Assembly (NCBI GenBank): GCA_964565925.1
Contig: CAZMGV010000001.1
Location: 430,618 to 494,617 of the forward strand
DNA: 64,000 nt
Direction of reading: 5' to 3'
Source: an uncultured bacterium
Lineage (GTDB): Bacteria > JAGRBM01 > JAHCIT01
This document shows positions 5,188 through 63,955 of the stretch, one piece after another. A program made the translations under genes and the position numbers. Under the pieces are notes generated by a model, which ran no database searches, was not told the origin of the DNA, and saw nothing but the letters and a program-made list of their open reading frames with translations. Numbering within the stretch: position 1 is the stretch's first letter; each line of letters opens with the position of its first letter.

Positions 5188-5844
5188 ATGGCGAAGACGA
5201 CGAAAAAGACGACGAAGAAAGCCCCGGCAAAATCCGCGAAAGCGGCCGCGAAGAAGCCCGCCCCAAAGCCGGTGAAGAAACCGGCCGCGCCCGCAAAGGG
5301 CTCGAAGAAACCCATCAGGACAGCCTCGAAAGCGGCGTCGAAGGCACCGGTGAAGCGTCCGGCCCCGAAGCCGGCGGCTAAACCGGTGGCAAAGGCGGCC
5401 CTCAAAACGGCGCCTGCGGCCACCGGAAAACCCGCCCCCAAAGCGCCGCCCAAGCCTGATCCCTCCCGCGAACAGCTCCACCGGCTCGTCAAAGCGCTGC
5501 TGGACAAGAAGGGCCAGGCGGTGACGAGTATCGAGGTGGGCGACATTGTCGGTTACACCGAATTCTATCTCATCGCGACCGGGACCTCGACCAAGCATAA
5601 CCAGACCCTCTGCGACGCCATTGTCGAGTCGGAAACGAAGACCGGCCACCAGAAACCGCGCCGCGAGGGGTACAACTTCGGCAACTGGATCGTCGTCGAC
5701 GCCGGGGACGTGATCGTCCACCTGTTCGACGACGCCTCCCGCCACCATTACGACCTGGAGCGCCTGTTCCTGGAATCCGAACGCAAGCTCTACGGCGAGG
5801 ACGGCAAGATCGTCGACCTGCCACGGATGAACCGGGGGGCCTGA
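5188..5844 (+). CDS. rsfS: ribosome silencing factor RsfS (Iojap) with an N-terminal lysine/alanine/proline-rich histone-H1-like extension of about 95 aa
   Basis: The C-terminal about 115 aa match RsfS (GDIVGYTEFYLIATGTSTKHNQTLCDAIVE...NWIVVDAGDVIVHLF...YDLERLF). The N-terminus is AKKPAPKPVKKPAAPAKG-type repeats. It is one continuous ORF. Confidence 0.8.
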   Translation: MAKTTKKTTKKAPAKSAKAAAKKPAPKPVKKPAAPAKGSKKPIRTASKAASKAPVKRPAPKPAAKPVAKAALKTAPAATGKPAPKAPPKPDPSREQLHRLVKALLDKKGQAVTSIEVGDIVGYTEFYLIATGTSTKHNQTLCDAIVESETKTGHQKPRREGYNFGNWIVVDAGDVIVHLFDDASRHHYDLERLFLESERKLYGEDGKIVDLPRMNRGA

Positions 5845-17917: not shown

Positions 17918-18199
17918 TTAGTGATAAGTGAAGCCGGGGCGCATCTTCGGTTTCGAGTCGCCCAGCAGCGCGTCCAGCAGAATGACCGCCGCCGCGCCGA
18001 AAATCGCCGCCGCGAGCAGCCCCAGGACCGCGATTCCCGCCGTCGCAAAGAGCAGCGGCGCGGCCACCGCGATCTGCGCCGGCTCCATCCGCCGGAGCCG
18101 TTCCCACAGGTCCGCCAGCGTCCGCCCCTCGGTCTCGCCGCCGGGGTTCTGGTCGGGGTCCGGCATCATGCCATTCAGGATCTCGTCGAAACGGGACAT
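17918..18199 (-). CDS. small membrane protein (93 aa)
   Basis: One long hydrophobic helix (IAVAAPLLFATAGIAVLGLLAAAIFGAAAVILL). First gene after the long ORF-free region. Confidence 0.35.
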   Translation of the reverse strand: MSRFDEILNGMMPDPDQNPGGETEGRTLADLWERLRRMEPAQIAVAAPLLFATAGIAVLGLLAAAIFGAAAVILLDALLGDSKPKMRPGFTYH

Positions 18200-19508
18200 A
18201 GCGAATCGCCTCCGGTGACCGGACCATATGATTTATGGGGAGCCGGGGGCAAGGGCGGGCGTACCTGACGAAAATCGCAGGTTTAATACTCACCACACCC
18301 CCGGCCGCTTTCGCGGCCTTCCCCCTCTCCGTGACTACGGAGAGGGGGCTGGGGGAGTGGTGCGGTACCCTAAACCCCTGTTGCCGGCAGCGGGTTTAGG
18401 GCTATTCAGTTTTCAAACACCTATCGCGGCATGCGTGGTTTCAGGCCACCGAGCCGCCTTTTCGGTTCCACCACTCGCTTTCCACCGGTCTGCGGGCGCC
18501 TGGTCTGTGCGCACCCCGGCTCGTGGAGCGAGAAGGGGGGTGCGACAGCCGTAGCGGCGCTAAACCGGAAGATCCATCGAATGGCGGGAACCTGCCCTCT
18601 CCGGGGAGACCCGCCCCTGCTCACGTGGTGGACCCACGCGACAGCGGCGCGACCGGGAAGGACTTCACTGGATCCAGGGCCCGCTCATCACGGTCGCCCG
18701 GACCTGAGCTCACTTCCGGCTTCTGAAACGGAACCCTTTCGGGTTCCGTCGTTTACCTCCGGGCCCCTTATCAGGACCATCGGGTTCGTCCGCCGGACGG
18801 AGACTTACCTTCACCCACTATTAATAGCGGCTATAAAAACGCGATCCAGAGCGTGGACCTAAATGGCCCTAAATGAGCCTAAATGAACCCATTTGACCCA
18901 AGTTTTTCAGCGTATTTTGCGAATCTACTGACGCTAGTTAAGACGTTAAATCTGACAACGGAACTCGCGGATCGAACTGAAGAATCTCTGAATCGGGACC
19001 ACCGGGACGGACCCGCAAAAACCGCCAAAATTATTTTCCCATTAACGCGACTTTTAATCTTCAGATTCCGGAATCCCGAGCGGCTCCAGCGGGTTAGCGT
19101 TTTCAGGGCCTTTCACAGCTTGGTCCATTTAGGGCCAAAACGGCGGTTTTATGCGGAAGGAGGGGTTAATATAAATGGCAAGTCGAACTCGCCCCTGCCC
19201 GGACGGAATCCGAAAACCGCTCGTCCTGAGGAGGCTTGCTGTGCAAGCCGTCTCGAAGGACGCGGTTCGAGCCGTTCGACCCTTCGAGACGCTTCGCTCC
19301 TCAGGGCGAACGGCTGTGCGCCCCGGAGCGGCGGGTGAGTCCTGAAACCCCTCCTCCACCTCTCCGTTTGACTTGTCCCGTCAAAAGGCCAATCCTTGCA
19401 GGTGTCCGGTTGCTTATTATCTAGGCTGCACAACCTTTAAGCAATCCGGTTAAATGCCGATGTAACCACGATATTGCCGCGATAAACAGGCAATGAGTCC
19501 GCCCGGAA

Positions 19509-20612
19509 ATGACTACAGAAACGGCAAAAATAACGCAAAACACCCCCTTCCGGATCGGAAAGGTGGAGGTGGCGGGCAATCTCGTGCTCGCCCCCATGTG
19601 CGGCGTGACCGATCTGGCGACGCGGCGGGTGTCCCGCAAGGAGGGCGCGTCGGTCTGCTTTACCGAGATGGTGAGCAGCGTGGCGCTCATGCACGACTCG
19701 AAAAAGACGTTCGACATTCTCCGCACGGCGGCCGACGATTCGCCGCTCGCGGTGCAGGTGTTCGGCGGCGATCCGGAGACTCTCGCCAAAGCGTGCCGGA
19801 TTCTGGAAGGCCTGGGCACGAAGTGGATCGACCTCAACATGGGGTGCCCGGTGCCCAAAGTCGCCAACCACGAGGCGGGCTCCGGCCTGCTGAAAGACCT
19901 GGCGCTCATCGGCCGGATTTTCGGCTCGATGCGGAAAGCGGTGAGCGGCACGTTTACGTGCAAGATCCGCGCGGGCTGGGACGCCAACTCGCTCGTCTTC
20001 ACCGAAGTGGTCCGCATCGCCAATGAAGAAGGGCTCGACGCGCTGGCGTTCCACCCGCGCACCCGCGCCCAGCAGTATACGGGCAAGGCGAACTGGGACT
20101 ATCTGAGGGACGCGCGCAGTATCTCGAAGATTCCGGTCTTCGGCAGCGGTGACCTGTTCTCCCCAACCGACGTGCTCGCCATGAAGAAGCACACGGACGT
20201 GAACGGCTGCTACCTCGCGCGCGGCGCGCAGGGCAATCCGTGGATCTTCCGCCGGGCGGCGGCGCTGCTCAGGGGCGAGCCGGACCCCGGCAGGCCCAAG
20301 GTCGGCGAGATCCGCCAGACAGTGATGGAACATCTGGACGGAAGCTGCTCGCTCTACGGCGAGGACCGGGGCGTGCGGATGTTCAGGAAGCATATCGGCT
20401 GGTACACGAAGGGGCTGCGCAACTCGGCGCAGCTCAGGGCGAAGGCGTTCAATTTCACCCGCCAGACGGACGTGCAGCAGACGCTGACCGAATATTTCGA
20501 TTCGCTCGAAGCGTCGGTTGAGAATCCGTGGTCCGGAACGGCTCGCCAGACAGACGACACTCCGCCAGTAGAAACCCCCGAGGACTGCCTTGCCTATGTC
20601 CAGGAGAGCTAA
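19509..20612 (+). CDS. dusB: tRNA-dihydrouridine synthase B (NifR3 family)
   Basis: VLAPMCGVTD...VCFTEMVSS...DLNMGCP...RAGW are Dus family motifs. Upstream of ntrBC, as in the nifR3-ntrB-ntrC arrangement. Confidence 0.85.
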   Translation: MTTETAKITQNTPFRIGKVEVAGNLVLAPMCGVTDLATRRVSRKEGASVCFTEMVSSVALMHDSKKTFDILRTAADDSPLAVQVFGGDPETLAKACRILEGLGTKWIDLNMGCPVPKVANHEAGSGLLKDLALIGRIFGSMRKAVSGTFTCKIRAGWDANSLVFTEVVRIANEEGLDALAFHPRTRAQQYTGKANWDYLRDARSISKIPVFGSGDLFSPTDVLAMKKHTDVNGCYLARGAQGNPWIFRRAAALLRGEPDPGRPKVGEIRQTVMEHLDGSCSLYGEDRGVRMFRKHIGWYTKGLRNSAQLRAKAFNFTRQTDVQQTLTEYFDSLEASVENPWSGTARQTDDTPPVETPEDCLAYVQES

Positions 20613-21799: not shown

Positions 21800-23245
<1,446 letters not shown>

Positions 23246-23246
23246 G

Positions 23247-23846
23247 TCAGACCAGCGGGCTGACCGGCTCGCCGCGGCGAATATTCATGATCAATTCGTG
23301 AACCTTGGCGGCGTCGGGGATCGCATAGAAGCCGATAAACCCGCTTGCTGCGCCGTTCGAGAAGAACTCCAAGCCGGAATCTGCGTACGCCCCCATTCCG
23401 ATTGGTACTGACGAAAAATGGATGGTGCCGGAGCCATCGCGACCGGTTGAACAGTTCAGCGTGGGCAACGCGTTAATAAATGCCGCTTGTACATTATGGC
23501 CCCGGAAGTCGGAAATGCTCATGACTCTTTGGTCAGTTACGACGTATATGGTCTTTTCTCGACGTAGTTTCTTTACAATGAATCGCCCGAAGATGAAGTA
23601 AAGACCCATTCCGACGAACGGAATACCGAACAGCACCATAGGGAATGGGGCCTTGGAACTGAATACGGACGTTTCCCAAAAGATCGCAAACCCGCCCCAC
23701 ACCAGACTGAAGGGGACTAGAAATGCGTCGCCTGGCGAAAACAATCTGGTAGGGTCAGGGCGACCAATCCAGAGAATTTGTTCGCCCTTAACCAGTTCAC
23801 TCTGAAGGTTCTGCTTAAGCTGATGCAGGTCGGTAAATGGGTGCAT
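23247..23846 (-). CDS. membrane protein with bacterial PH-like (DUF304-type) domain
   Basis: Two hydrophobic helices followed by a small beta-rich domain. Locally lower GC (about 52%). Confidence 0.4.
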   Translation of the reverse strand: MHPFTDLHQLKQNLQSELVKGEQILWIGRPDPTRLFSPGDAFLVPFSLVWGGFAIFWETSVFSSKAPFPMVLFGIPFVGMGLYFIFGRFIVKKLRREKTIYVVTDQRVMSISDFRGHNVQAAFINALPTLNCSTGRDGSGTIHFSSVPIGMGAYADSGLEFFSNGAASGFIGFYAIPDAAKVHELIMNIRRGEPVSPLV

Positions 23847-23874
23847 TTAGAAAATTATTCTAAACGTACACCAA

Positions 23875-24357
23875 TCACTCCGCCACAATGATCTCCGGCA
23901 CGTTCTCAATGGGGAAGTTCACGGAGTTGGCGATTATGCAGTGGTGATGGGCCTTCTCGTGAAGCGCCTTCGCCCGGTCCGGGTCCGTGCCGGGTGCGAT
24001 TGTCACCTTCGGGTGCAGGACAATCCGGGTGAACCGGAAGATCCCGCCGGTGCTTTCGATCCAGCCCTCGGGCTCGTCTTCATAGGCGAGCACCTCCAGG
24101 CGGGATTTCGCGCAGACGGCGATGTAGGTCAGGAAGTGGCACGACGTGACCGCCGACATCAGGAAATCTTCCGGATTGTGGAGCTTCGGATCGCCGATAA
24201 ACGACGGCGCCGAGCTGGCTGTCACCGGCACCTTGCCGTCGATGTCGATCCGGTGTTCCCGCGAGTAGGTCTCATAGGTGAACGGCTGGCCGCTCGTGGC
24301 GCCGGTCCAGACCAGCCTGCATCTAAATCCGTGCTTCAGGACAGGTGCGTCAGCCAT
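23875..24357 (-). CDS. OsmC/Ohr-family peroxiredoxin
   Basis: About 160 aa with the two conserved Cys (SAVTSCHF and HHHCIIANS), the OsmC pattern. Confidence 0.75.
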   Translation of the reverse strand: MADAPVLKHGFRCRLVWTGATSGQPFTYETYSREHRIDIDGKVPVTASSAPSFIGDPKLHNPEDFLMSAVTSCHFLTYIAVCAKSRLEVLAYEDEPEGWIESTGGIFRFTRIVLHPKVTIAPGTDPDRAKALHEKAHHHCIIANSVNFPIENVPEIIVAE

Positions 24358-30677: not shown

Positions 30678-31613
30678 ATGCCGCAGACGTCCCCTACGCC
30701 AGCCGACCTCGACTCCATCTACCGGGAACACCGCCAGTTCCTGTGGGGGCTCACCTACCGGCTCACCGGCAGCACGGCGGACGCCGACGATATCGTGCAG
30801 GAGACGTTCGTGAAGGCCATCGAGAACCCGCCTCCCGACACGGCCAGACCGTGGCGGCCGTGGCTTGTGCGGGTGGCGACGAACCTCGGCATCGACCGGC
30901 TGCGCCGCCGCAAGGAGTCGCCCTACCCGGGTCCCTGGCTCCCGGCGGTGATCGAGACCGCGCCGGGCGACTTCGATCTGGCCGACACGGCCCCGACCCC
31001 CGACGGCCGGTACACCGAACTGGAAAGCGTCACGCTGGCGTTCCTGCTGGCGCTCGAAGCGTTGAACCCCAAGCAGCGGGCGGTGCTGATCCTGCGCGAC
31101 GTGTTCGACTACTCCGTGGCCGAAACGGCGCAGGCGCTCGAGATATCCGAATCCGACGTCAAAACCACCCATCACCGCGCGCGCGGGCTGATGGAAACCT
31201 ACGACCACGCCCGGGTGATCCCGACCAGGGCGCTCCAGCAGAAGGTGCAGGTGGCGCTCGGTAATTTCCTGTCGTGCCTGATGAACCGCGACGCGGCGGG
31301 TATCGAGAAGCTGCTCGCGGCGGACGTGCGGGTGCTCTCCGACGGCGGCGGCGAGTACAGCGCCGCGCGGGTGCCGATTGTCGGCGCCGCCAAGGTGGCG
31401 AAGTTCTACGTCAGCATCAGCGAGCAGAAGGCCGAGGGGATGAACCTGCAGCTGACGTATCTGAACGGCCTGCCCGCCATCGTCATCCGTACCGAGAACC
31501 CGGAGGACGGCACCGCGCCGGTACTGGTCTGGCAGTGCGTGATAGATCAGTCAGGGAAGATCAAAGAGTTTCACAGCGTCATGGCGACGGAGAAGGTGCT
31601 GAGTTTAAAGTAA
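30678..31613 (+). CDS. ECF sigma factor with C-terminal SnoaL-like extension (ECF41/SigJ-type)
   Basis: Sigma2 (DADDIVQETFVKA) and sigma4 (VLILRDVFDYSVAETAQALEISESDVKTTHHRAR) regions. YPGPWLP motif resembling the ECF41 YVGPWLPEP linker. About 110-aa C-terminal extension. No adjacent anti-sigma gene. Confidence 0.7.
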   Translation: MPQTSPTPADLDSIYREHRQFLWGLTYRLTGSTADADDIVQETFVKAIENPPPDTARPWRPWLVRVATNLGIDRLRRRKESPYPGPWLPAVIETAPGDFDLADTAPTPDGRYTELESVTLAFLLALEALNPKQRAVLILRDVFDYSVAETAQALEISESDVKTTHHRARGLMETYDHARVIPTRALQQKVQVALGNFLSCLMNRDAAGIEKLLAADVRVLSDGGGEYSAARVPIVGAAKVAKFYVSISEQKAEGMNLQLTYLNGLPAIVIRTENPEDGTAPVLVWQCVIDQSGKIKEFHSVMATEKVLSLK

Positions 31614-31638
31614 CTCAACCGCTGCTTCGCGGTATATT

Positions 31639-32727
31639 TCATGTGCCCGCCAACTGCCTCTCATCAAAAAGCTGTTCTGGCTTCCGCCATCCGTTTGGGT
31701 ATTCAACTACAGGAGGGAATCCATTGGTTTCGTCCGAAACGCAATTGACGAATGTTTCCTTAGAGATACCTTGCACGTTGCTGAAACCTTGGTATCTAAA
31801 TTGACACATATAAAATCTTGCATTTGTTAAGTTGGCACCGGCGATCGATGTTGAATCCATAGTCACGCCGCTCATTGTGCAATCAGTAAGGTTCGAGCCG
31901 TTGAAATCGACTCCGTACATTACCGCACCAATGAAACTAGCCCCAGTAAAATCGCAATTAGTTAATTTCGCTAACGCCATAATGCATTGTGAAAATTGCA
32001 CATTACGGAAACATAAGCCGTCGAGACGGCCATTCACGATCAGGACTTCTTTTAATTCTGGGCGATATCCGATCGGGTCATTCGCAATATTTCGTCTACC
32101 AATCACAGTTAAGGCGAACTTGATCGCTTCCGGCATTTCGGTTTCAAAAATACTATCTGAATAAACGTCGACGTAATTCAATTCAGTGAGTACTGCACCA
32201 GAGGGTCGCTTGAAAACCTCATGATGGATGTCATCCCATATTCTCCGGTTCCACGACGACTTCCGTCGCACGAATGACGAGAGCACTTCCATGGATGGGA
32301 CATGAAAATCCGTAGCCGATTTTGCGATATGTTCAATTACAAAAATTGCTCCGATTACTTCATCGATTTTATCGCTCGTCAGCATCCGAACGGCTGACTG
32401 AAATTGCTCCGATAATAGTCGACGCTCAGATAACCGATTGTTTTCGACGGCAACGGCAGCCTGGCTAAGTGCGGCAGCAGCCTGCTGCTCCGCAGCTTTT
32501 ATCCGTCTCCAAGCAAACACGAAACCGATTAGTGCAGCTATTACTCCAAGGACTTTCAAGTAGAAATCCATGAAGTCTTTCAGCGTGATTTTTTCGGAAT
32601 CGACCGGCCCGATTATGGACTGCAAAACGAACCAAAGAAGAAGAACGACGCAGATCAAGAAAAACCCGACCAACAAGGTCTGGGATAAATCGATTTTGAC
32701 GTTATTTTGATCTCTTTGCTCTACCAT
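31639..32727 (-). CDS. membrane-anchored pentapeptide-repeat protein (low-GC island)
   Basis: N-terminal TM helices, a central domain of unknown type, then C-terminal A(D/N)LXX pentapeptide repeats (CDFTGASFIGAVMYGVDFNGSNLTDCTMSGVTM...). Local GC about 47% against about 64% in flanks. Confidence 0.5.
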   Translation of the reverse strand: MVEQRDQNNVKIDLSQTLLVGFFLICVVLLLWFVLQSIIGPVDSEKITLKDFMDFYLKVLGVIAALIGFVFAWRRIKAAEQQAAAALSQAAVAVENNRLSERRLLSEQFQSAVRMLTSDKIDEVIGAIFVIEHIAKSATDFHVPSMEVLSSFVRRKSSWNRRIWDDIHHEVFKRPSGAVLTELNYVDVYSDSIFETEMPEAIKFALTVIGRRNIANDPIGYRPELKEVLIVNGRLDGLCFRNVQFSQCIMALAKLTNCDFTGASFIGAVMYGVDFNGSNLTDCTMSGVTMDSTSIAGANLTNARFYMCQFRYQGFSNVQGISKETFVNCVSDETNGFPPVVEYPNGWRKPEQLFDERQLAGT

Positions 32728-32852
32728 TGCCCATCACTCACGTATCCAAGCTGCTTACGAGGCTGAAACGATATCGCGATCGGTGACTCCGTAATGAAAC
32801 GCAAATAGGTGCGTAAGCAATGCCTAACTAATTCCCAGGTAAAATAGGCATT

Positions 32853-33221
32853 TCAGGAAGGGCTACGTTGCATAAAGCCGAAATCCATAATCCACCGATC
32901 TGGGTCGAAATGGCCTACGAGGTCTCGATTCGCAAGATTAAATACAAAGTCCTGAAGCAACCCTTCATAGCCCGCTTCAAACCCAATATCTTCGCGATTT
33001 TCTACAACCTCGGCCCAGTCGCGTAGATAATCCTCAGTAATGTCACGATCCGTCAATCGCATGAGAAGATTTCTCGCGTCCTTACGAGTGAATAGAACTA
33101 AATCAGCCCTCGAATCCCAACCAAACGATGCCAACTCCTCTTCAATTTCCGAAGGCGGCCTTCGTAAATTGATCAACTCCTCAAGAAGGAGCGTGCGCCT
33201 TGCTAAATCGATGCCATTCAT
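32853..33221 (-). CDS. hypothetical acidic protein (122 aa) in low-GC island
   Basis: Start overlaps the stop of the upstream 82-aa ORF (ATGA). No recognisable domain. Confidence 0.35.
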   Translation of the reverse strand: MNGIDLARRTLLLEELINLRRPPSEIEEELASFGWDSRADLVLFTRKDARNLLMRLTDRDITEDYLRDWAEVVENREDIGFEAGYEGLLQDFVFNLANRDLVGHFDPDRWIMDFGFMQRSPS

Positions 33222-33466
33222 GGGTACTTCTGCTTAACGTGAACGACATTCCCACTAGGGTCATACGTCGTTTTTATATATTTTAGCGTAATACCTGCTC
33301 CATCTACAGTTTTTTCGTAAATTGCCTTAGAGCCGGGGACGATTCCATTTACAGTCGCCTCAAAAACGACACTTCCGTTTGGCAGAGCGTAATTACGGAC
33401 GGATGCGACTGCGTTCGGCAGTTTCGAAACGAAGCGCTTATAATTATTGGTTTGCTGGCTGTTCAA
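33218..33466 (-). CDS. hypothetical small protein (82 aa) in low-GC island
   Basis: TTG start with the palindrome AATTGGC-A-GCCAATT overlapping the start/RBS. No recognisable domain. The coding call is tentative. Confidence 0.3.
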   Translation of the reverse strand: MNSQQTNNYKRFVSKLPNAVASVRNYALPNGSVVFEATVNGIVPGSKAIYEKTVDGAGITLKYIKTTYDPSGNVVHVKQKYP

Positions 33467-33613
33467 TTGGCTGCCAATTCATTCCCGCAATTATTTCGCT
33501 TATATCATATCTGTATATTGTGCGCTAATAAATTCAAGAAGCGCTCAATCCCCTCTCTGTGCGATCCGGCGAGGATAATCCGGTTCCAGCTCGTTCCTTG
33601 GCCGGTTGAGTGC

Positions 33614-41033: not shown

Positions 41034-41261
41034 GTGAGTCGAATGCCGCAGATAACCGCGAAAGAACTTCTACGGTTTCTAAAATCCCAGGGATTTCGCG
41101 AGGACCGTCAGGCGGGAAGCCATCTCGTGTTGATTCATCCAGATAGTGGAATTCAGCTGACAATTCCCATGCACTTCGGAACTGACCTCGGCCGGGGCCT
41201 CGCTGTCCGTATCCTCAAAGATGCTGGATTCAGCGTCGACGACTACCTGCGGCTCCGCTAG
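41034..41261 (+). CDS. hicA: HicA-family mRNA interferase toxin
   Basis: LLRFLKSQGFREDRQAGSHLVL is the YcfA/HicA motif with the catalytic His. Confidence 0.65.
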   Translation: MSRMPQITAKELLRFLKSQGFREDRQAGSHLVLIHPDSGIQLTIPMHFGTDLGRGLAVRILKDAGFSVDDYLRLR

Positions 41262-41337
41262 GGCACCCGTCCCGCCTCTTGCTCCGGCTCTATGCGGGAG
41301 CCATCTTTCCGGTCGATCAACTCAACTGGAGCCAGCC

Positions 41338-43053
41338 ATGTCAGCCGATCTCGTCATCCGTAACGGAACCCTTTTCGACGGCACCGGAGCACCGGGCCGG
41401 GTGGCGGATATCGCCTTCAAGGCCGGCCGGGTGGCCGAGACCGGCCAAAAGCTCGCCATCAAGGGGACGACCGAGATCGACGCGTCGGGCTGCTGGGTGA
41501 CGCCGGGTTTTATCGACGTCCACACGCACTATGACGCTGAAGTGGAAGCCCTGCCGGGACTCGAAGAGTCGGTGCGCCACGGCGTCACGACGATGATCTT
41601 CGGCAACTGCTCGCTGTCGGCGGCGCTGGGCTCGGAGGCGGAAATCCTGGACCTCTTCTGCCGCGTCGAGAGCCTGCCCCGTGACCTCATGTCGAAATGG
41701 ATGACCGGCCGGGTCACCTGGAAATCGGTCGGCGAGTATTACGACCACCTGGACAAGCTGCCGCTCGGGCCCAACGTGGCGACGTTCCTTGGACATTCGA
41801 ACGTCAGGATCGCCGCCATGGGGCTCGACCGGAGCCTGAAAGTGCCCAAGGCGAGCCGCGACGAAATCACCCGCATGAAGAAGATCGTCGCTGAAGCGAT
41901 GGAGGCCGGATACCTGGGCCTCTCGGTGGACATGCTCCCGTGGCACCGCATGGACGGCGACGCCTACCGGGGGATTTCGGTTCCGTCGCAGCAGGCGGAC
42001 GTGAGCGAATACCGCGCGCTGGCCGAAGTGGTCCGCAAGGCCGGGCGCATCCTCCAGGCGACTCCCAACGCGCTCATGAAGAAGACCGTCGTCGATATTA
42101 TCCGGATGTCGATAGGGATCGGCCGCCGGCCGCTCAAGGCGACGATGATCGCCGCCATGGACGTCAAAACCAACCGCAACATCTGGAAGCTGGCCACCAC
42201 GATGGCCCGCACCGCGAACACACTGCTGAACGCCGACTTCAAGTGGCAGGCGCTCGCGGACCCGTTCACCAACTACTGCGACGGCGTGAACACGCCGCTG
42301 TTCGAGGAGTTCCCGGCCGGGGTGGAACTGATCAGCGCGTCCCCTGAGGGCCGCCGGGCGCTGCTCCACAGCCACCAGTTCCGCCAGCAGTTCACCCATG
42401 AGTGGAACGACAGCAGACAGAAGGTGTTTCACCGCAACTTCGCCGAGATGTACGTGGTGTCGTCGCCCGATCCGAAACACAAAGGGAAGTCGGTCGCTGA
42501 CATTGCAAAAGACCGCCGCCAGGGCGCGCTCGAATGTTTCCTCGACCTCATCGCCGAGCACGACAGCGCGTTCCGCTGGAAGACGGTGGTCTCGAACGAC
42601 CGGGACGAGATCCGCGCGAAGCTGCTCGCCCACCCGGACACGATCCCGGGCTTCAACGATTCGGGCGCCCACAACCGGAACATGGCGTTCCAGGACGGCG
42701 CGCTCCGCACGCTTCAGCAGGCGCTGGAGCTGCCGGAAATCCTGCCGGTCGAGACCGCCGTCCGCAAACTCACCAAAGAGACCGCCGACTGGATGGGCAT
42801 AGATACCGGTTCGCTCGTGACGGGCTCGGCCGCCGACGCGGTGGTGATCGATCCGGCAAAGCTGAAGTCATGGAAATCCGAGGCGGTCGAGTTCAACGAC
42901 CCCAAACTGGGCGGCGCCATGCGGATGGTGAAACGGTCCGAAGGCGTTGTCAGGAATGTAGTGATCGGCGGCAAGATCGCGTTCGAACGCGGCCAGTTCG
43001 TCAAAACCTACGGCGAACAGAAGTTCGGCCGTCTGCTCAGGGCTTTGAAGTAG
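41338..43053 (+). CDS. amidohydrolase, N-acyl-D-amino-acid deacylase (D-aminoacylase) family
   Basis: N-terminal VIRNGTLFDG...GFIDVHTHYD metal-binding start of the amidohydrolase superfamily. About 570 aa with the D-aminoacylase-like C-terminal beta domain. Start at MSADLV. Confidence 0.65.
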   Translation: MSADLVIRNGTLFDGTGAPGRVADIAFKAGRVAETGQKLAIKGTTEIDASGCWVTPGFIDVHTHYDAEVEALPGLEESVRHGVTTMIFGNCSLSAALGSEAEILDLFCRVESLPRDLMSKWMTGRVTWKSVGEYYDHLDKLPLGPNVATFLGHSNVRIAAMGLDRSLKVPKASRDEITRMKKIVAEAMEAGYLGLSVDMLPWHRMDGDAYRGISVPSQQADVSEYRALAEVVRKAGRILQATPNALMKKTVVDIIRMSIGIGRRPLKATMIAAMDVKTNRNIWKLATTMARTANTLLNADFKWQALADPFTNYCDGVNTPLFEEFPAGVELISASPEGRRALLHSHQFRQQFTHEWNDSRQKVFHRNFAEMYVVSSPDPKHKGKSVADIAKDRRQGALECFLDLIAEHDSAFRWKTVVSNDRDEIRAKLLAHPDTIPGFNDSGAHNRNMAFQDGALRTLQQALELPEILPVETAVRKLTKETADWMGIDTGSLVTGSAADAVVIDPAKLKSWKSEAVEFNDPKLGGAMRMVKRSEGVVRNVVIGGKIAFERGQFVKTYGEQKFGRLLRALK

Positions 43054-43077: not shown

Positions 43078-43158
43078 CCCTCTCTACCATGTAGAGAGGG
43101 TGGGCCTTAAGTAATCTGCAATAGCTGCAAGTTCCCCTCTCTGCGTGACAGAGAGGGG
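43078..43158. terminator. pair of convergent GC-rich hairpins (CCCTCTCTAC-N3-GTAGAGAGGG and CCCCTCTCTG-N5-CAGAGAGGGG)
   Basis: Located between the stop of the + strand amidohydrolase gene and the stop of the - strand aldolase gene. Perfect 10-bp stems. Confidence 0.5.
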
Positions 43159-43183: not shown

Positions 43184-43828
43184 TCACTTCGGGGTTTTCT
43201 TGGCGTCTTCCAGGAACTGCTTGAGGCCCGCATCGGTGAGCGGGTGCTTGATGAGCTGCTTGATCACCTTCAGCGGGCAGGTGGCGACGTCCGCCCCGGC
43301 CATGGCCGACTGCACCACATGAATGGGGTGACGGATCGACGCGGCCAGGATCTGCGTCTCGAACCCGTAGTTGTCGTAGATCGCCCGGATCTGGCCGATC
43401 AGCTCCATGCCGTCCTGCGACACGTCGTCCAGACGGCCGATGAACGGGCTGATATAGGTCGCGCCGACTTTCGCGGCGAGCAGCGCCTGCGTCGGCGAGA
43501 AGCAGAGCGTGACGTTGGTCTTGATGCCCTCGGCGGTGAAGATTTTCGTCGTCTTGATGCCGTCCTCGATCAGCGGGACCTTCACGACGATGTTCTTGTG
43601 GATCTTCGCCAGTTCGCGGCCTTCCTTGAGAATCCCGTCCTTGTCCACCGCGGTGACTTCCGCCGAGATCGGGCCGTCCACGATCTTCACGATGTCGTGG
43701 ATCACGTCCAGGAACTTGCGGCCCGTCTTGGCGATCAGCGACGGGTTCGTCGTCACTCCGTCCAGCACGCCGAAGTCGTTGGCGTCCTTGATCTCGGCGA
43801 TGTCGGCGGTGTCCACGAAAAATTTCAC
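43184..43828 (-). CDS. fructose-6-phosphate aldolase / transaldolase-family protein (TalC/Fsa type)
   Basis: [14 protein letters not shown]...GVTTNPSL...SAEV...KVP Schiff-base Lys region. About 214 aa, typical of the short Fsa/TalC subfamily. Confidence 0.8.
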
Positions 43829-61686: not shown

Positions 61687-62453
61687 CGGTCCTTCACCAG
61701 CGCCGCCCAGTCGTCAAAAACGGTCCGGCCGACCTTCTCCATCTCAGGCAGATATTTCCCGGCGATCCCTGAAATCGAGTCGGCGCCAATTTTCTCCGCT
61801 TTCAGCTCGCTGGCGAACACCTCCGCCATCATGCCGACCTGCTTGCGGTTCACTTCCAGATGGAACTGGAGCGCATAGGCGCTTTTGCCGTAACGGAACG
61901 CCTGGTTCGGAGTCAGCGCCGAATGGGCCAGCCTCACGGCGCCCTTGGGCAGCTCGAACCGGTCGCCGTGCCAGTGAAAGGCCATGAACTTTTTGGGGAC
62001 CTTGCTGAAAATCGGATCGGCCGTTCCGCCGGCATCGAGCTGTACCGGGTACCAGCCGATCTCCTTCTTCGGTCCGGGTTTCACGTCGCCTGCAAGCGCC
62101 CCCGCCATGAGCTGCGCCCCCAGGCACACGCCCAGCACCGGAATGTCCTGCGCCACGGCCGACTCGATCAGCTTCATCTCGTCTTTCAGATATTTGAACT
62201 TGTCCGATTCATAGACACCCATCGGCCCGCCCATGATCACGACACCGGCAATGCCGTCCGGCGGCGACTGCGGAACGGCGTCCTTCCAGGTCGCTACAAG
62301 TTTCGCCCCGATCCGGGCGCGCGAAAGCGCATCGCTGATCGTGCCTGGGTTTTCGCAGGAGATGTGCTGCAGGACGAGCACTTCGGGCTTGGGCTGCGCC
62401 GGCGCCTTCGCTGTCTTTGCGGGCCTGGCGGGCGGTTTTTGCTTCGAGGGCAT
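61671..62453 (-). CDS. class I glutamine amidotransferase-like protein
   Basis: GVCLGAQL catalytic Cys elbow and the HxE end (FHLE). Start at MPSKQ. The ORF extends to 62513. Confidence 0.6.
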
Positions 62454-62701
62454 CGGGCGGACCTCCGGAGCCGTGACTATAGCCGGTCCTGACCGGGTCT
62501 TCAGCGGACACAAACCGGGGAAATTCCAGGGTTGACTCGACCGTCAGAATTCATCTTATTCCATAATAATATCAGCATCTTATAAATTGATCATTGACTT
62601 ATATTACTTTGTAATACAAATTAATACCCATCGAGGCGCCGGAGGCCATTCAAGTTACCCCGGCAGCCCAAAATCCAAAGGGACCACAGAAGGGAACCCA
62701 C

Positions 62702-63955
62702 ATGCAAACCGAAACCATTAACACCCAGATCAAGGACAACCCCGCACCGATTTCAGCCGGCGCGGTGGGCTTGGCCTCAAACCCCCAGCCGGCCGCTTCC
62801 GCTGCCGCCACCAACCCTGCCGATAGCACCACCGCACCGCGCTGGGCCTCTGATGAAGAGCGCCTGCGCAAGTTCGGCGAAGCCATCGACGCGATCCGCA
62901 CGAAGATCGAGGCGAAGATCGGCGAAGAGGACGTCCACTACATCAAGCGGGTGGACGCTTTCTCCCGCACGATGGAAGTCGCCGGGCGGCTGTTGCTCCA
63001 CTTCAGCTTCGAACCGATCACCTGGAGCATGGGCGTCATCGCCCTGTGGCTGCACAAGCAGCTCCAGGCAACCGAGGTCGGCCACACGGCGCTTCACGGC
63101 GCCTTCGACGGACTGCCCAATGCAGAACGCTACCAGTCGGCGACCTTCAAATGGGATGTACCGATCGACGAAGAGGCCTGGCGCTACGGGCACAACATCC
63201 GCCACCACCAGTTCACCAACATCACCGGCAAGGACCCGGACATCCATTTCGGTCCGATCCGCCTGAACGACCAGACGCCGCACAGCGCAGTCAACTACTT
63301 CCAGATCCCGATCATGGCGGTCGTGGCGACCAACTTCGGCTTCGGAATGAACATGCACTTCACCGGCATGACGGACTACTGGGGCGGCACAGGCCGCGAA
63401 GGAAAGTTCGACTTCATCAAGGACCGCTCGTGGGAGACCGCCAAGGACGTCCACAAGAAGGCGTTCCGCAAGTGGATCCCCTACTACGCCAAGAACTACG
63501 TCCTGTTCCCGCTGCTCGCGGGGCCGGGATTCCTGAAAGTGCTGGCCGGGAACGCGCTGGCCGAAGTGATGCGGGACCTCTACTCCGCCGCGACGATCTA
63601 CTGCGGGCACATCGGCGAAGACGTGAAGGACTACCCGGAGGGCACCAAGGCCCGCAACCGCGGCGAGTGGTACGCCATGCAGGTGGACTCGGCCAACAAC
63701 TTCGACGTGCCGCTTCCGGTCTCCATGCTCTGCGGGGCGCTGGACCTGCAGGTGGAACACCACATGTTCCCCAAGTTCCCCACCAACCGGCTGCGCGAAG
63801 CCGCGCCGCAGGTAAAAAAAGTCTGCGAGGAATACGGCGTGAACTACAAGACCGACACCTGGCCCGGCACGCTCAAGAAGGTCATGAGCCGGCTCTGGCA
63901 GCTCAGCTTCCCGGACAAGAAGTCCGCCGAAGCGGAGCAGCGCCTCGCCGCCTGA
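62702..63955 (+). CDS. membrane fatty-acid desaturase (acyl-CoA/acyl-lipid, DesA3-like)
   Basis: His boxes HTALHGAF, HNIRHHQFTN and QVEHHMFP. Hydrophobic spans. About 50-aa low-complexity N-terminus. Confidence 0.75.
   Translation: MQTETINTQIKDNPAPISAGAVGLASNPQPAASAAATNPADSTTAPRWASDEERLRKFGEAIDAIRTKIEAKIGEEDVHYIKRVDAFSRTMEVAGRLLLHFSFEPITWSMGVIALWLHKQLQATEVGHTALHGAFDGLPNAERYQSATFKWDVPIDEEAWRYGHNIRHHQFTNITGKDPDIHFGPIRLNDQTPHSAVNYFQIPIMAVVATNFGFGMNMHFTGMTDYWGGTGREGKFDFIKDRSWETAKDVHKKAFRKWIPYYAKNYVLFPLLAGPGFLKVLAGNALAEVMRDLYSAATIYCGHIGEDVKDYPEGTKARNRGEWYAMQVDSANNFDVPLPVSMLCGALDLQVEHHMFPKFPTNRLREAAPQVKKVCEEYGVNYKTDTWPGTLKKVMSRLWQLSFPDKKSAEAEQRLAA

Follow-up and report, generated by a model that had tools for sequence, protein, structure and literature searches.

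A gene-free, lineage-specific insert between two divergent operons of an uncultured bacterium: a candidate ORF-less repeat element with REP-like palindromes at its ends

We analysed a stretch of 64,000 nt (hereafter the window) from an uncultured bacterium of the GTDB lineage JAGRBM01; JAHCIT01 (contig CAZMGV010000001.1, assembly GCA_964565925.1), and in particular the 1309 nt at 18200-19508 which, without a credible gene, separate the start of a gene of 93 amino acids (aa; 17918-18199, minus strand) from dusB (19509-20612, plus strand). On the left, a minus-strand gene string runs from 18199 down to 9034 and encodes an acyltransferase, a fatty-acid desaturase, DUF1232 and GHL10 proteins, a member of the Na/sulfate symporter family and a fatty-acid hydroxylase. 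On the right, from 19509 on the plus strand, dusB is followed by genes for a PAS histidine kinase and a sigma-54 activator. Gene calls and domains agree here with the original prediction, which had been made from the sequence alone and had described a lipid/membrane gene string and dusB-ntrBC on either side of about 1.3 kb free of open reading frames (ORFs). That absence of genes holds as well. The region 18200-19508 is non-coding: its ORFs had no Pfam match, either individually or in six-frame translation, and the spread of GC content between codon positions stays at or below 0.16 throughout, as against 0.30-0.48 in the flanking genes. Indeed, 18151-19575 is the longest segment without codon periodicity in the window. 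Base composition follows the predicted succession of a GC-rich and an AT-richer segment, with GC of 0.64-0.70 at 18400-18800 and of 0.45-0.52 at 18800-19200. An open frame does span the GC-rich part, which we call the core, and in it third codon positions are poorer in GC than second ones, the reverse of what real genes show in this window.

Most of the spacer is peculiar to this lineage. Close relatives of the DusB encoded in the window are few, with 82%, 81% and 74% identity, and the next ones stand at about 52% (the nearest named relative, 52% identical, comes from a metagenome-assembled genome of the Bdellovibrionota); the three DusB lineages are roughly equidistant from each other, at 80-82% identity. 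Gene order at the relatives' loci is identical (Na/sulfate symporter, GHL10, DUF1232, desaturase, acyltransferase, three unnamed genes, Dus, PAS kinase, sigma-54 activator), and the spacer between the 93-aa gene and dusB measures 182 nt in L023/L024, 214 nt in L002 and 344 nt in L003, against 1309 nt in the window. Only about 60 nt beside the 93-aa gene and the last 140 nt or so before dusB are conserved with these relatives. In L002 a motif of the form GGGGCAAG..GGGG lies 3 nt from TTTGACTT, whereas in the window about 1107 nt stand between the two. Comparison of the spacers with L002, L023/L024 and L003 places the insert at 18260-19367, with boundaries accurate to within 3 nt on either side. 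The triplet CGT is found at both junctions, either as a 3-bp duplication or by chance.

What remains on the two sides of the insert looks like the ancestral spacer. Beside the 93-aa gene (18200-18259, minus strand) it holds a ribosome-binding site and the motif GGGGCAAGGGCGGG (18246-18259), which lies about 50 nt from the start codon and recurs at a similar distance in L002/L023/L024 (GGGGCAAGCAGGGG), while in L003 a looser match, GCAAGGGATGGGGG, stands some 120 nt from the start codon (about 5766-5785). The motif can be written as GGGGCAAG(G/C)(G/A)GGG (window 18246-18259, L002 about 259-272); its minus-strand reading is CCC..CTTGCCCC, with (T/C)ATAAA about 9 nt further on, and to judge from this pattern it may be part of the promoter of the 93-aa operon. 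On the other side, the putative dusB promoter and leader (19368-19508, plus strand) consist of TTGACT (19368-19373), 17 nt, AATCCT (19391-19396) and then GGCTGCA..TTTAAGCA. These roughly 140 nt are kept at six loci (the window, L002, L003, L023, L024 and L025), in whose alignment conservation begins exactly at TTGACT and the columns of TTGACT-N17-AATCCT are invariant. The segment GGCTGCA..TTTAAGCA is conserved more loosely; in L003 it reads like a sigma-54 site (GGGCTGCTCATTTGCT), but not in the window. The additional 1.1 kb or so is thus specific to this lineage and lies between two divergent core promoters, both apparently left intact. A gain is a simpler account than repeated losses, because the DusB lineages are equidistant and because copies of the inserted sequence occur elsewhere. 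BLASTN of the region found no match among plasmids and phages, and no second copy in the rest of the window. A Logan contig from a short-read assembly of the same organism (L001, SRR14271334) ends at 18348, the exact end of a perfect 28-nt palindrome, and the insert is missing there; we take this end to be an assembly break and not a repeat boundary.

The copies elsewhere came to light through mistranslation. A spurious ORF of 143 aa over the core (18431-18859) was used as a probe in an exhaustive search of 1.84 billion representative proteins and retrieved P0123 (191 aa, E 2e-33), to which a profile search added P0125 (218 aa). P0123 is encoded on a contig of 137,635 nt. P0125 is encoded on a contig of 621,984 nt, exactly the length of the contig that encodes the DusB of the window (P0001), and since it is not encoded in the window, it represents a second copy in the same genome. 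At least two further copies of the repeat element thus exist, one of which lies elsewhere on the 622-kb contig of the window. The DNA of both paralogues was inferred from the translated ORFs, in which third codon positions are unseen, and was compared with the window by frameshift-tolerant protein-to-DNA alignment. No relative was found in a viral scan with P0125 or in a protein search with a concatenated six-frame pseudo-protein.

In these alignments the core, a candidate structured RNA of the minus strand (18400-18850), shares with P0125 and P0123 the blocks 18400-18438, 18441-18557, 18575-18724 and 18791-18849. The best block matches (18575-18724) have 48 to 49 of 50 residues identical, and the blocks are connected through five or six frame changes of 1-2 nt in each copy. 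These frameshifts between copies, together with a GC content lower at codon position 3 than at position 2, indicate that the core is conserved as non-coding DNA. Its variable part (18725-18797, minus strand) holds in the window a 10-bp hairpin with a GAAA loop (18727-18750) and extra hairpins, and both paralogues share a shorter version. Next to it lies a conserved AT-rich block (18810-18837, plus strand) with the palindrome CCACTATTAATAGCGG (18815-18830), whose peptide, TYLHPLLIAAIKTRS, is identical in P0123 and has one change in P0125. The same block also reads TTCACC-N16-TATAAA and is promoter-like; it was the only plausible candidate when the region was inspected by eye for sigma-54 and sigma-70 promoters, the others having unsuitable spacings, and the promoter scan did not call it. 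Further to the right, 18850-19103 is replaced (132 nt in the paralogues against 262 nt in the window, the only copy to have a tandem 10-mer array), and a second block, 19104-19166, is again conserved with both paralogues. Altogether, homology extends from at least 18345 to 19166, which is essentially the whole insert. P0123 and P0125 agree at about 92% of residues in their shared frame and are closer to each other than either is to the window, so the window copy is the diverged one. Lack of conservation in relatives had been proposed as a sign of a mere decayed spacer; at the locus itself the sequence is indeed not conserved, but it is conserved at other loci.

The insert is also set apart by its secondary structure. 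Perfect hairpins of at least 10 bp number seven in the window, as against 0-5 (mean 1.25) in block shuffles, and two of the seven stand here within 80 nt of each other: one at 18321-18348 with a perfect 12-bp stem and one at 18368-18401 with a perfect 10-bp outer stem. Two back-to-back perfect 10-bp hairpins had been noticed from the start; both are present, although the first has the longer stem. When folding energy was scanned in sliding 120-nt segments, z-scores of -4 or below occurred only at 18200-18440 (down to -8) and 19160-19360 (about -6), whereas the flanking coding DNA stayed within about +/-2. The left-hand fold (18255-18415) reaches z -7.3 on the plus and -7.9 on the minus strand, and the right-hand one (19140-19370), a rod with a junction, -5.0 and -5.5, respectively; these folds bear out the nested helices that had been noted in addition to the two hairpins.

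At the left edge of the insert a small hairpin (18263-18282) belongs to the minimum-energy folds of both strands. It is followed by a predicted three-way junction (18287-18367), in which an outer stem, CACCACACCCCC/GGGGGAGTGGTG, encloses GGCCGC-TTTC-GCGGCC (18304-18319) and the 12-bp hairpin 18321-18348, with equal energy on both strands, and then by the hairpin CCCTAAACCC..GGGTTTAGGG (18368-18401), which is shortened or different in P0125. Behind the core, a terminator-like hairpin and then GCGTTTTTAT (18843-18859, minus strand) are seemingly not conserved in the paralogues, to judge from the alignment. The 10-mer array comprises three tandem 10-nt units CCTAAATGNN (18858-18887, plus strand) with an inverted copy at 19126-19133; CCTAAATG occurs in the window only in those four copies, 0.54 being expected. 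The rod itself (19154-19358) is a 205-nt composite hairpin with a branched tip, again of equal energy on both strands, and the conserved block 19104-19166 includes the 5' strand of its outer stem. As both end structures fold equally well on either strand, we read them as DNA-level palindromes, probably of the kind known as repetitive extragenic palindromic (REP) sequences.

Membership in repeated families supports this for each end. The pattern CCCTCTC-N4-20-GAGAGGG occurs three times in the window (18323, 43078 and 43135) against 0.01 expected. The hairpin 18321-18348 belongs to this family, and the back-to-back hairpins singled out in the original prediction are therefore palindromes of the REP kind. 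The other two occurrences are back-to-back perfect hairpins (43078-43100, CCCTCTCTAC..GTAGAGAGGG, and 43135-43157, CCCCTCTCTG..CAGAGAGGGG) between convergent genes (41221-43053, plus strand, and 43184-43828, minus strand); they look like a REP doublet of the same stem family. A metagenome contig that also carries the four-way repeat described below (L076) has four CCCTCTC..GAGAGGG hairpins, followed by GGAGGGGTGAGGTG, which resembles GGCTGGGGGAGTGGTG in the window. No unpaired GTAG or CGTC tag was found beside the CCCTCTC hairpins. A viral scan with the two left hairpins gave isolated matches that resemble chance or terminators, and one with the 10-mer array gave unrelated microsatellites only. 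In one viral contig (L044:886-922) the sequence CCCTAAACCC..GGGTTTAGGG then CTATTC matches 18368-18407 with 80% identity over 40 nt (E 0.08); this resemblance may be due to chance, and no other similarity between that contig and the window was found.

The tip of the rod carries a second, more elaborate palindrome, the four-way-junction repeat (19215-19315, both strands), formed by the blocks CCTGAGGAG/CGTCTCGAAGG/CCTTCGAGACG/CTCCTCAGG. All four invariant blocks can be read in order directly from the sequence at 19224-19306. The covariance model R1, built from a 62-member alignment (A2), finds this copy with 59.1 and 58.3 bits (E about 1e-12), scores that are inflated by the presence of the window copy in the seed. 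A scan of viral contigs with CGTCTCGAAGG-N15-27-CCTTCGAGACG returned six contigs whose wider architecture is common with the window, and a scan of metagenomes with a three-block pattern returned at least 120 contigs, mostly from soil (examples are L055:239-334 and L046:924-1017). The consensus of A2 is CCTCAT-CCTGAGGAG-[hairpin]-CGTCTCGAAGGATGG-[~20 variable nt]-CCATCCTTCGAGACG-[hairpin]-CTCCTCAGG-ATGAGG, an inverted dimer of a unit of about 45 nt. The cores of its outer and central stems are invariant, being the blocks fixed by the search pattern, and its side arms, hairpins of about 11-16 nt, covary, with changes on both sides in 31-33 of the 62 sequences at single arm pairs.

Replicons of Methylobacterium, Roseibium and Microvirga carry full-length members of this repeat, one M. 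bullatum record in 32 places, and the family is otherwise typical of Hyphomicrobiales. Among the listed loci, 40 members lie between convergent genes, 35 between tandem genes and 8 between divergent ones; the window copy, in a divergent spacer, is unlike most of the family. Its first arm is present (GCTTGC-TGT-GCAAGC), of the third only CTTCG is left, and the outer stem, CCGCTCGT/GCGAACGG, is that of the viral contig L045. It is the only match of R1 in the window, and there was none in about 49 kb of the relatives' loci. The rest of the insert showed no resemblance to the 170 loci that were fetched. Canonical members matched no Rfam family, and literature searches by sequence strings and spurious-peptide motifs found no published name for the repeat. 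The elements described that come nearest, the GTAG/CGTC super-families of REPs (PMC3733652) and Br-REP1/2 (PMC5082802), both differ from it in sequence. Its blocks translate into PHPEE, VSKDG, SFETR and LLRMR, peptides well known from spurious ORFs of Bradyrhizobium and related bacteria.

Unlike the two ends, the core does not behave alike on both strands. For 18409-18841 the minus strand has a folding z-score of -4.9 and the plus strand one of -2.3; 28 background windows of the same length have a mean of -0.45, a standard deviation of 1.2 and a minimum of -3.9. The minimum free energies, -209.8 and -181.6 kcal/mol, differ by about 28 kcal/mol in favour of the minus strand. In the fold of the window copy a helix of 7 bp, 18834-18840 with 18409-18415, closes the whole core, and hairpin loops of the minus strand read GAAA, as at 18727-18750; the paralogue peptide TPFGA, back-translated, would give a hairpin that keeps this loop on another stem. 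Substitutions at paired sites that the paralogue sequences force preserve pairing in 8 of 13 cases for the minus strand, compared to 1 of 8 for the plus strand. At the pair 18659/18714, U-A is replaced by C-G in P0123, with a G-U intermediate in P0125.

Several points weigh against an RNA nonetheless. The permutation test on the substitutions gives P about 0.09, which is not significant, its inputs being inferred paralogue DNA and a structure that was predicted with the window copy itself. Covariation supports a single pair, and the evidence comes from three copies, two of which are seen only through mistranslated ORFs. G-U counts (17 versus 11) do not distinguish the strands, and indels are only slightly enriched at unpaired positions. 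Consensus scans found no convincing pair of promoter and terminator, and there is no Rfam match. Moreover, the helices, 13-16 bp long and near-perfect, look as much like DNA palindromes as like RNA domains. The genome of P0123 could be the same one or another, so that conservation across species is not established, and the window copy, which has diverged furthest of the three, could be a duplicate in decay. The large structured non-coding RNA of the original prediction is thus somewhat favoured for the 450-nt core and its minus strand, but it is not demonstrated.

On balance, the account that we favour, and that we consider about evenly poised between right and wrong, sees in the insert an additional, diverged copy of a repeat element without ORFs, with a core that is probably a structured RNA of the minus strand and with ends formed by palindromes of the REP type. 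A copy of about 1.1 kb would have arrived between the two back-to-back core promoters and harmed neither. The core (18400-18850) would most likely be transcribed from the minus strand, in the direction of the operon of the 93-aa gene, and its transcript would fold into a multi-hairpin RNA with GAAA-capped helices, closed by the helix between 18834-18840 and 18409-18415. At the left end a three-way junction would form around the CCCTCTC..GAGAGGG hairpin, and at the right end the rod would enclose the four-way repeat. We infer the transcription, its strand, the RNA function and the route by which the copy arrived. A bolder version, which is possible but which we regard with some doubt, takes the core (minus strand) and the block 19104-19166 as a new family of large, GNRA-rich structured RNAs kept in several copies. 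Its better-preserved genes would be those at the P0123 and P0125 loci, and the copy in the window would be a duplicate that has diverged and acquired REP-like palindromes.

Alternatively, the insert could be a purely DNA-level selfish or mosaic element with no RNA function, either a non-autonomous mobile element or a palindrome cluster of the kind of bacterial interspersed mosaic elements (BIMEs), REPINs or PATEs, spread by a recombinase acting in trans or by recombination; we see this as a real possibility, though not the probable one. Similarity between the copies would then reflect recent copying and not selection. Much of the evidence presented above would suit such an element: the insert is here and not in the relatives, at least two copies share one contig, both ends are strand-symmetric palindromes with two REP-like families embedded, the core is itself a series of long hairpins, CGT stands at both junctions and the statistics specific to RNA are weak. 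The ends do not resemble each other as those of a transposon would, since their similarity, inverted or direct, scores 21-22 where shuffles have a mean of 17.4 and a maximum of 31; a 13-nt repeat considered as a terminal repeat, TCCCCCTCTCCGT/TCCACCTCTCCGT, was likewise no better than shuffles. No remnant of a transposase or integrase appeared in the six-frame Pfam search of the stretch, and about 1 kb is large for an ORF-less miniature inverted-repeat transposable element (MITE) among the described families. Finally, the core folds better on one strand by about 28 kcal/mol, and the substitutions tolerate that strand only. A decayed mobile-element remnant, as had been suggested earlier, agrees with the lineage-specific 1.1 kb, with homologues in the same genome and with the two palindrome families, but finds neither terminal inverted repeats, nor a convincing target duplication, nor a transposase remnant.

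The remaining accounts are unlikely even when taken together. The best of them, itself very unlikely, takes the stretch for a long 5' leader or a regulatory region of the minus-strand lipid/membrane operon, of dusB-ntrBC or of both, as was first proposed. Its position between divergent operons and the common direction of the candidate RNA and the 93-aa gene would fit, but the comparison largely refutes it: relatives keep the same operons without the stretch and with spacers of only 182-344 nt, sharing no more than the flanking 60 nt and 140 nt, and the stretch has homologues at other loci. A decayed protein gene or a randomly drifting spacer is scarcely credible, for while there are long open frames (143 and 151 aa) and the core frame is open in all three copies, there is no codon-position GC signal (with position 3 below position 2 in that frame), no Pfam match in any frame, the copies differ by frameshifts, and a drifting spacer would not be conserved elsewhere. 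Equally remote is the possibility that a known class of RNA is present in divergent form (RNase P RNA, tmRNA, SRP RNA, 6S RNA, a riboswitch, an ORF-less group II intron, OLE, GOLLD, ROOL or HEARO). Size and the GC-rich, hairpin-rich look speak for it, as does GTGCG (18360-18364) after the hairpins, as in class C group II introns, but GTGCG is not kept in P0125. The 4227 models of Rfam 15 found nothing at gathering score in the whole window and nothing but hairpin-like noise at E up to 10 in 18100-19600 and in a 471-nt core alone, so the covariance-model check proposed with the original prediction yields no family; ARAGORN, run on the window, found no tRNA or tmRNA. The misfit to RNase P RNA, tmRNA, SRP RNA and the cobalamin riboswitch, first judged by eye, is in keeping with these empty searches. 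A replication origin was considered too and rejected: the region has no DnaA box (the window has 4 against 4.0 expected) and no switch in GC skew.

Elsewhere in the window, further segments without codon-position GC periodicity lie at 1-960, 23176-23925 and 62206-62910, without an Rfam match at gathering score; an ORF of 199 aa at 23247-23846 had no Pfam match. A low-GC islet at 31600-33500 (0.45-0.50 against about 0.63) encodes a pentapeptide-repeat protein (31639-32727, minus strand) and two small ORFs without a Pfam match, adjoins a gene for a sigma factor of the extracytoplasmic function type (30678-31613, plus strand) and was probably acquired horizontally.

The palindromes belong to a type of element already described, but the four-way family, extremely abundant in soil metagenomes and in the Methylobacterium, Roseibium and Microvirga replicons, seems not to have been curated. 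It merits curation, as it gives rise to spurious ORFs and assembly breaks and has no Rfam entry. The core is another matter, with no Rfam 15 family, no Pfam domain and no match in the phage, plasmid and viral collections that were searched. Should it be an RNA gene, it would add a large non-coding RNA family not described before, in a lineage that metagenome bins alone have revealed, and the several copies of the family would offer a way to its function. Should it be mobile DNA and no more, an ORF-less repeat of unusual length has landed between divergent promoters and left them unbroken, which would inform us on how intergenic mosaics form. In either case, the 1.3 kb should not be annotated as a leader conserved upstream of dusB-ntrBC or the lipid operon.

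How does the insert compare with systems that have been described? REP, BIME and REPIN palindromes include the GTAG and CGTC super-families of REPs, of which the CGTC type predominates in alphaproteobacterial replicons, and published REPs have a stem of 8-9 bp, a loop of 4-5 nt and an unpaired GTAG or CGTC end tag (Di Nocera et al. 2013, PMC3733652). The ends of the insert are alike in being short to medium palindromes from repeated families. The four-way repeat comes closest, lying mostly between convergent or tandem genes, forming an inverted dimer as in head-to-head REP dimers and occurring as full-length copies in alphaproteobacterial replicons. It differs in that its CGTC pairs with GACG where REPs have a free tag, its stems and loops depart from the published dimensions, and here it has a single copy in 64 kb, in a divergent spacer; the 450-nt core is not explained by REPs at all. 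Br-REP1 and Br-REP2 are compound elements of adjacent palindromes that are transcribed as stem-loops in the 3' untranslated and intergenic regions of Bradyrhizobium, occur also in Rhodopseudomonas and vary greatly in abundance between relatives (Hahn et al. 2016, PMC5082802). The insert is likewise a compound of several adjacent palindromes, but the consensus is unlike (that of Br-REP1 is CCGGAATCTCGAGATTCCGG) and no sequence relation to the window was found. With the large RNAs OLE, GOLLD, ROOL and HEARO the core has in common a length of several hundred nucleotides, many GNRA-capped hairpins, more than one copy and the lack of a matching Rfam 15 model for itself, while it shows no similarity to any of their Rfam models and has one covarying pair where those RNAs have dozens. 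Finally, compared to MITEs and to palindrome-associated elements derived from IS200/IS605, the insert lacks terminal inverted repeats and a clear target duplication and is several times longer than typical members. Yet like them it is an ORF-less, multi-copy and intergenic element that disrupts no promoter and carries hairpins at both termini.

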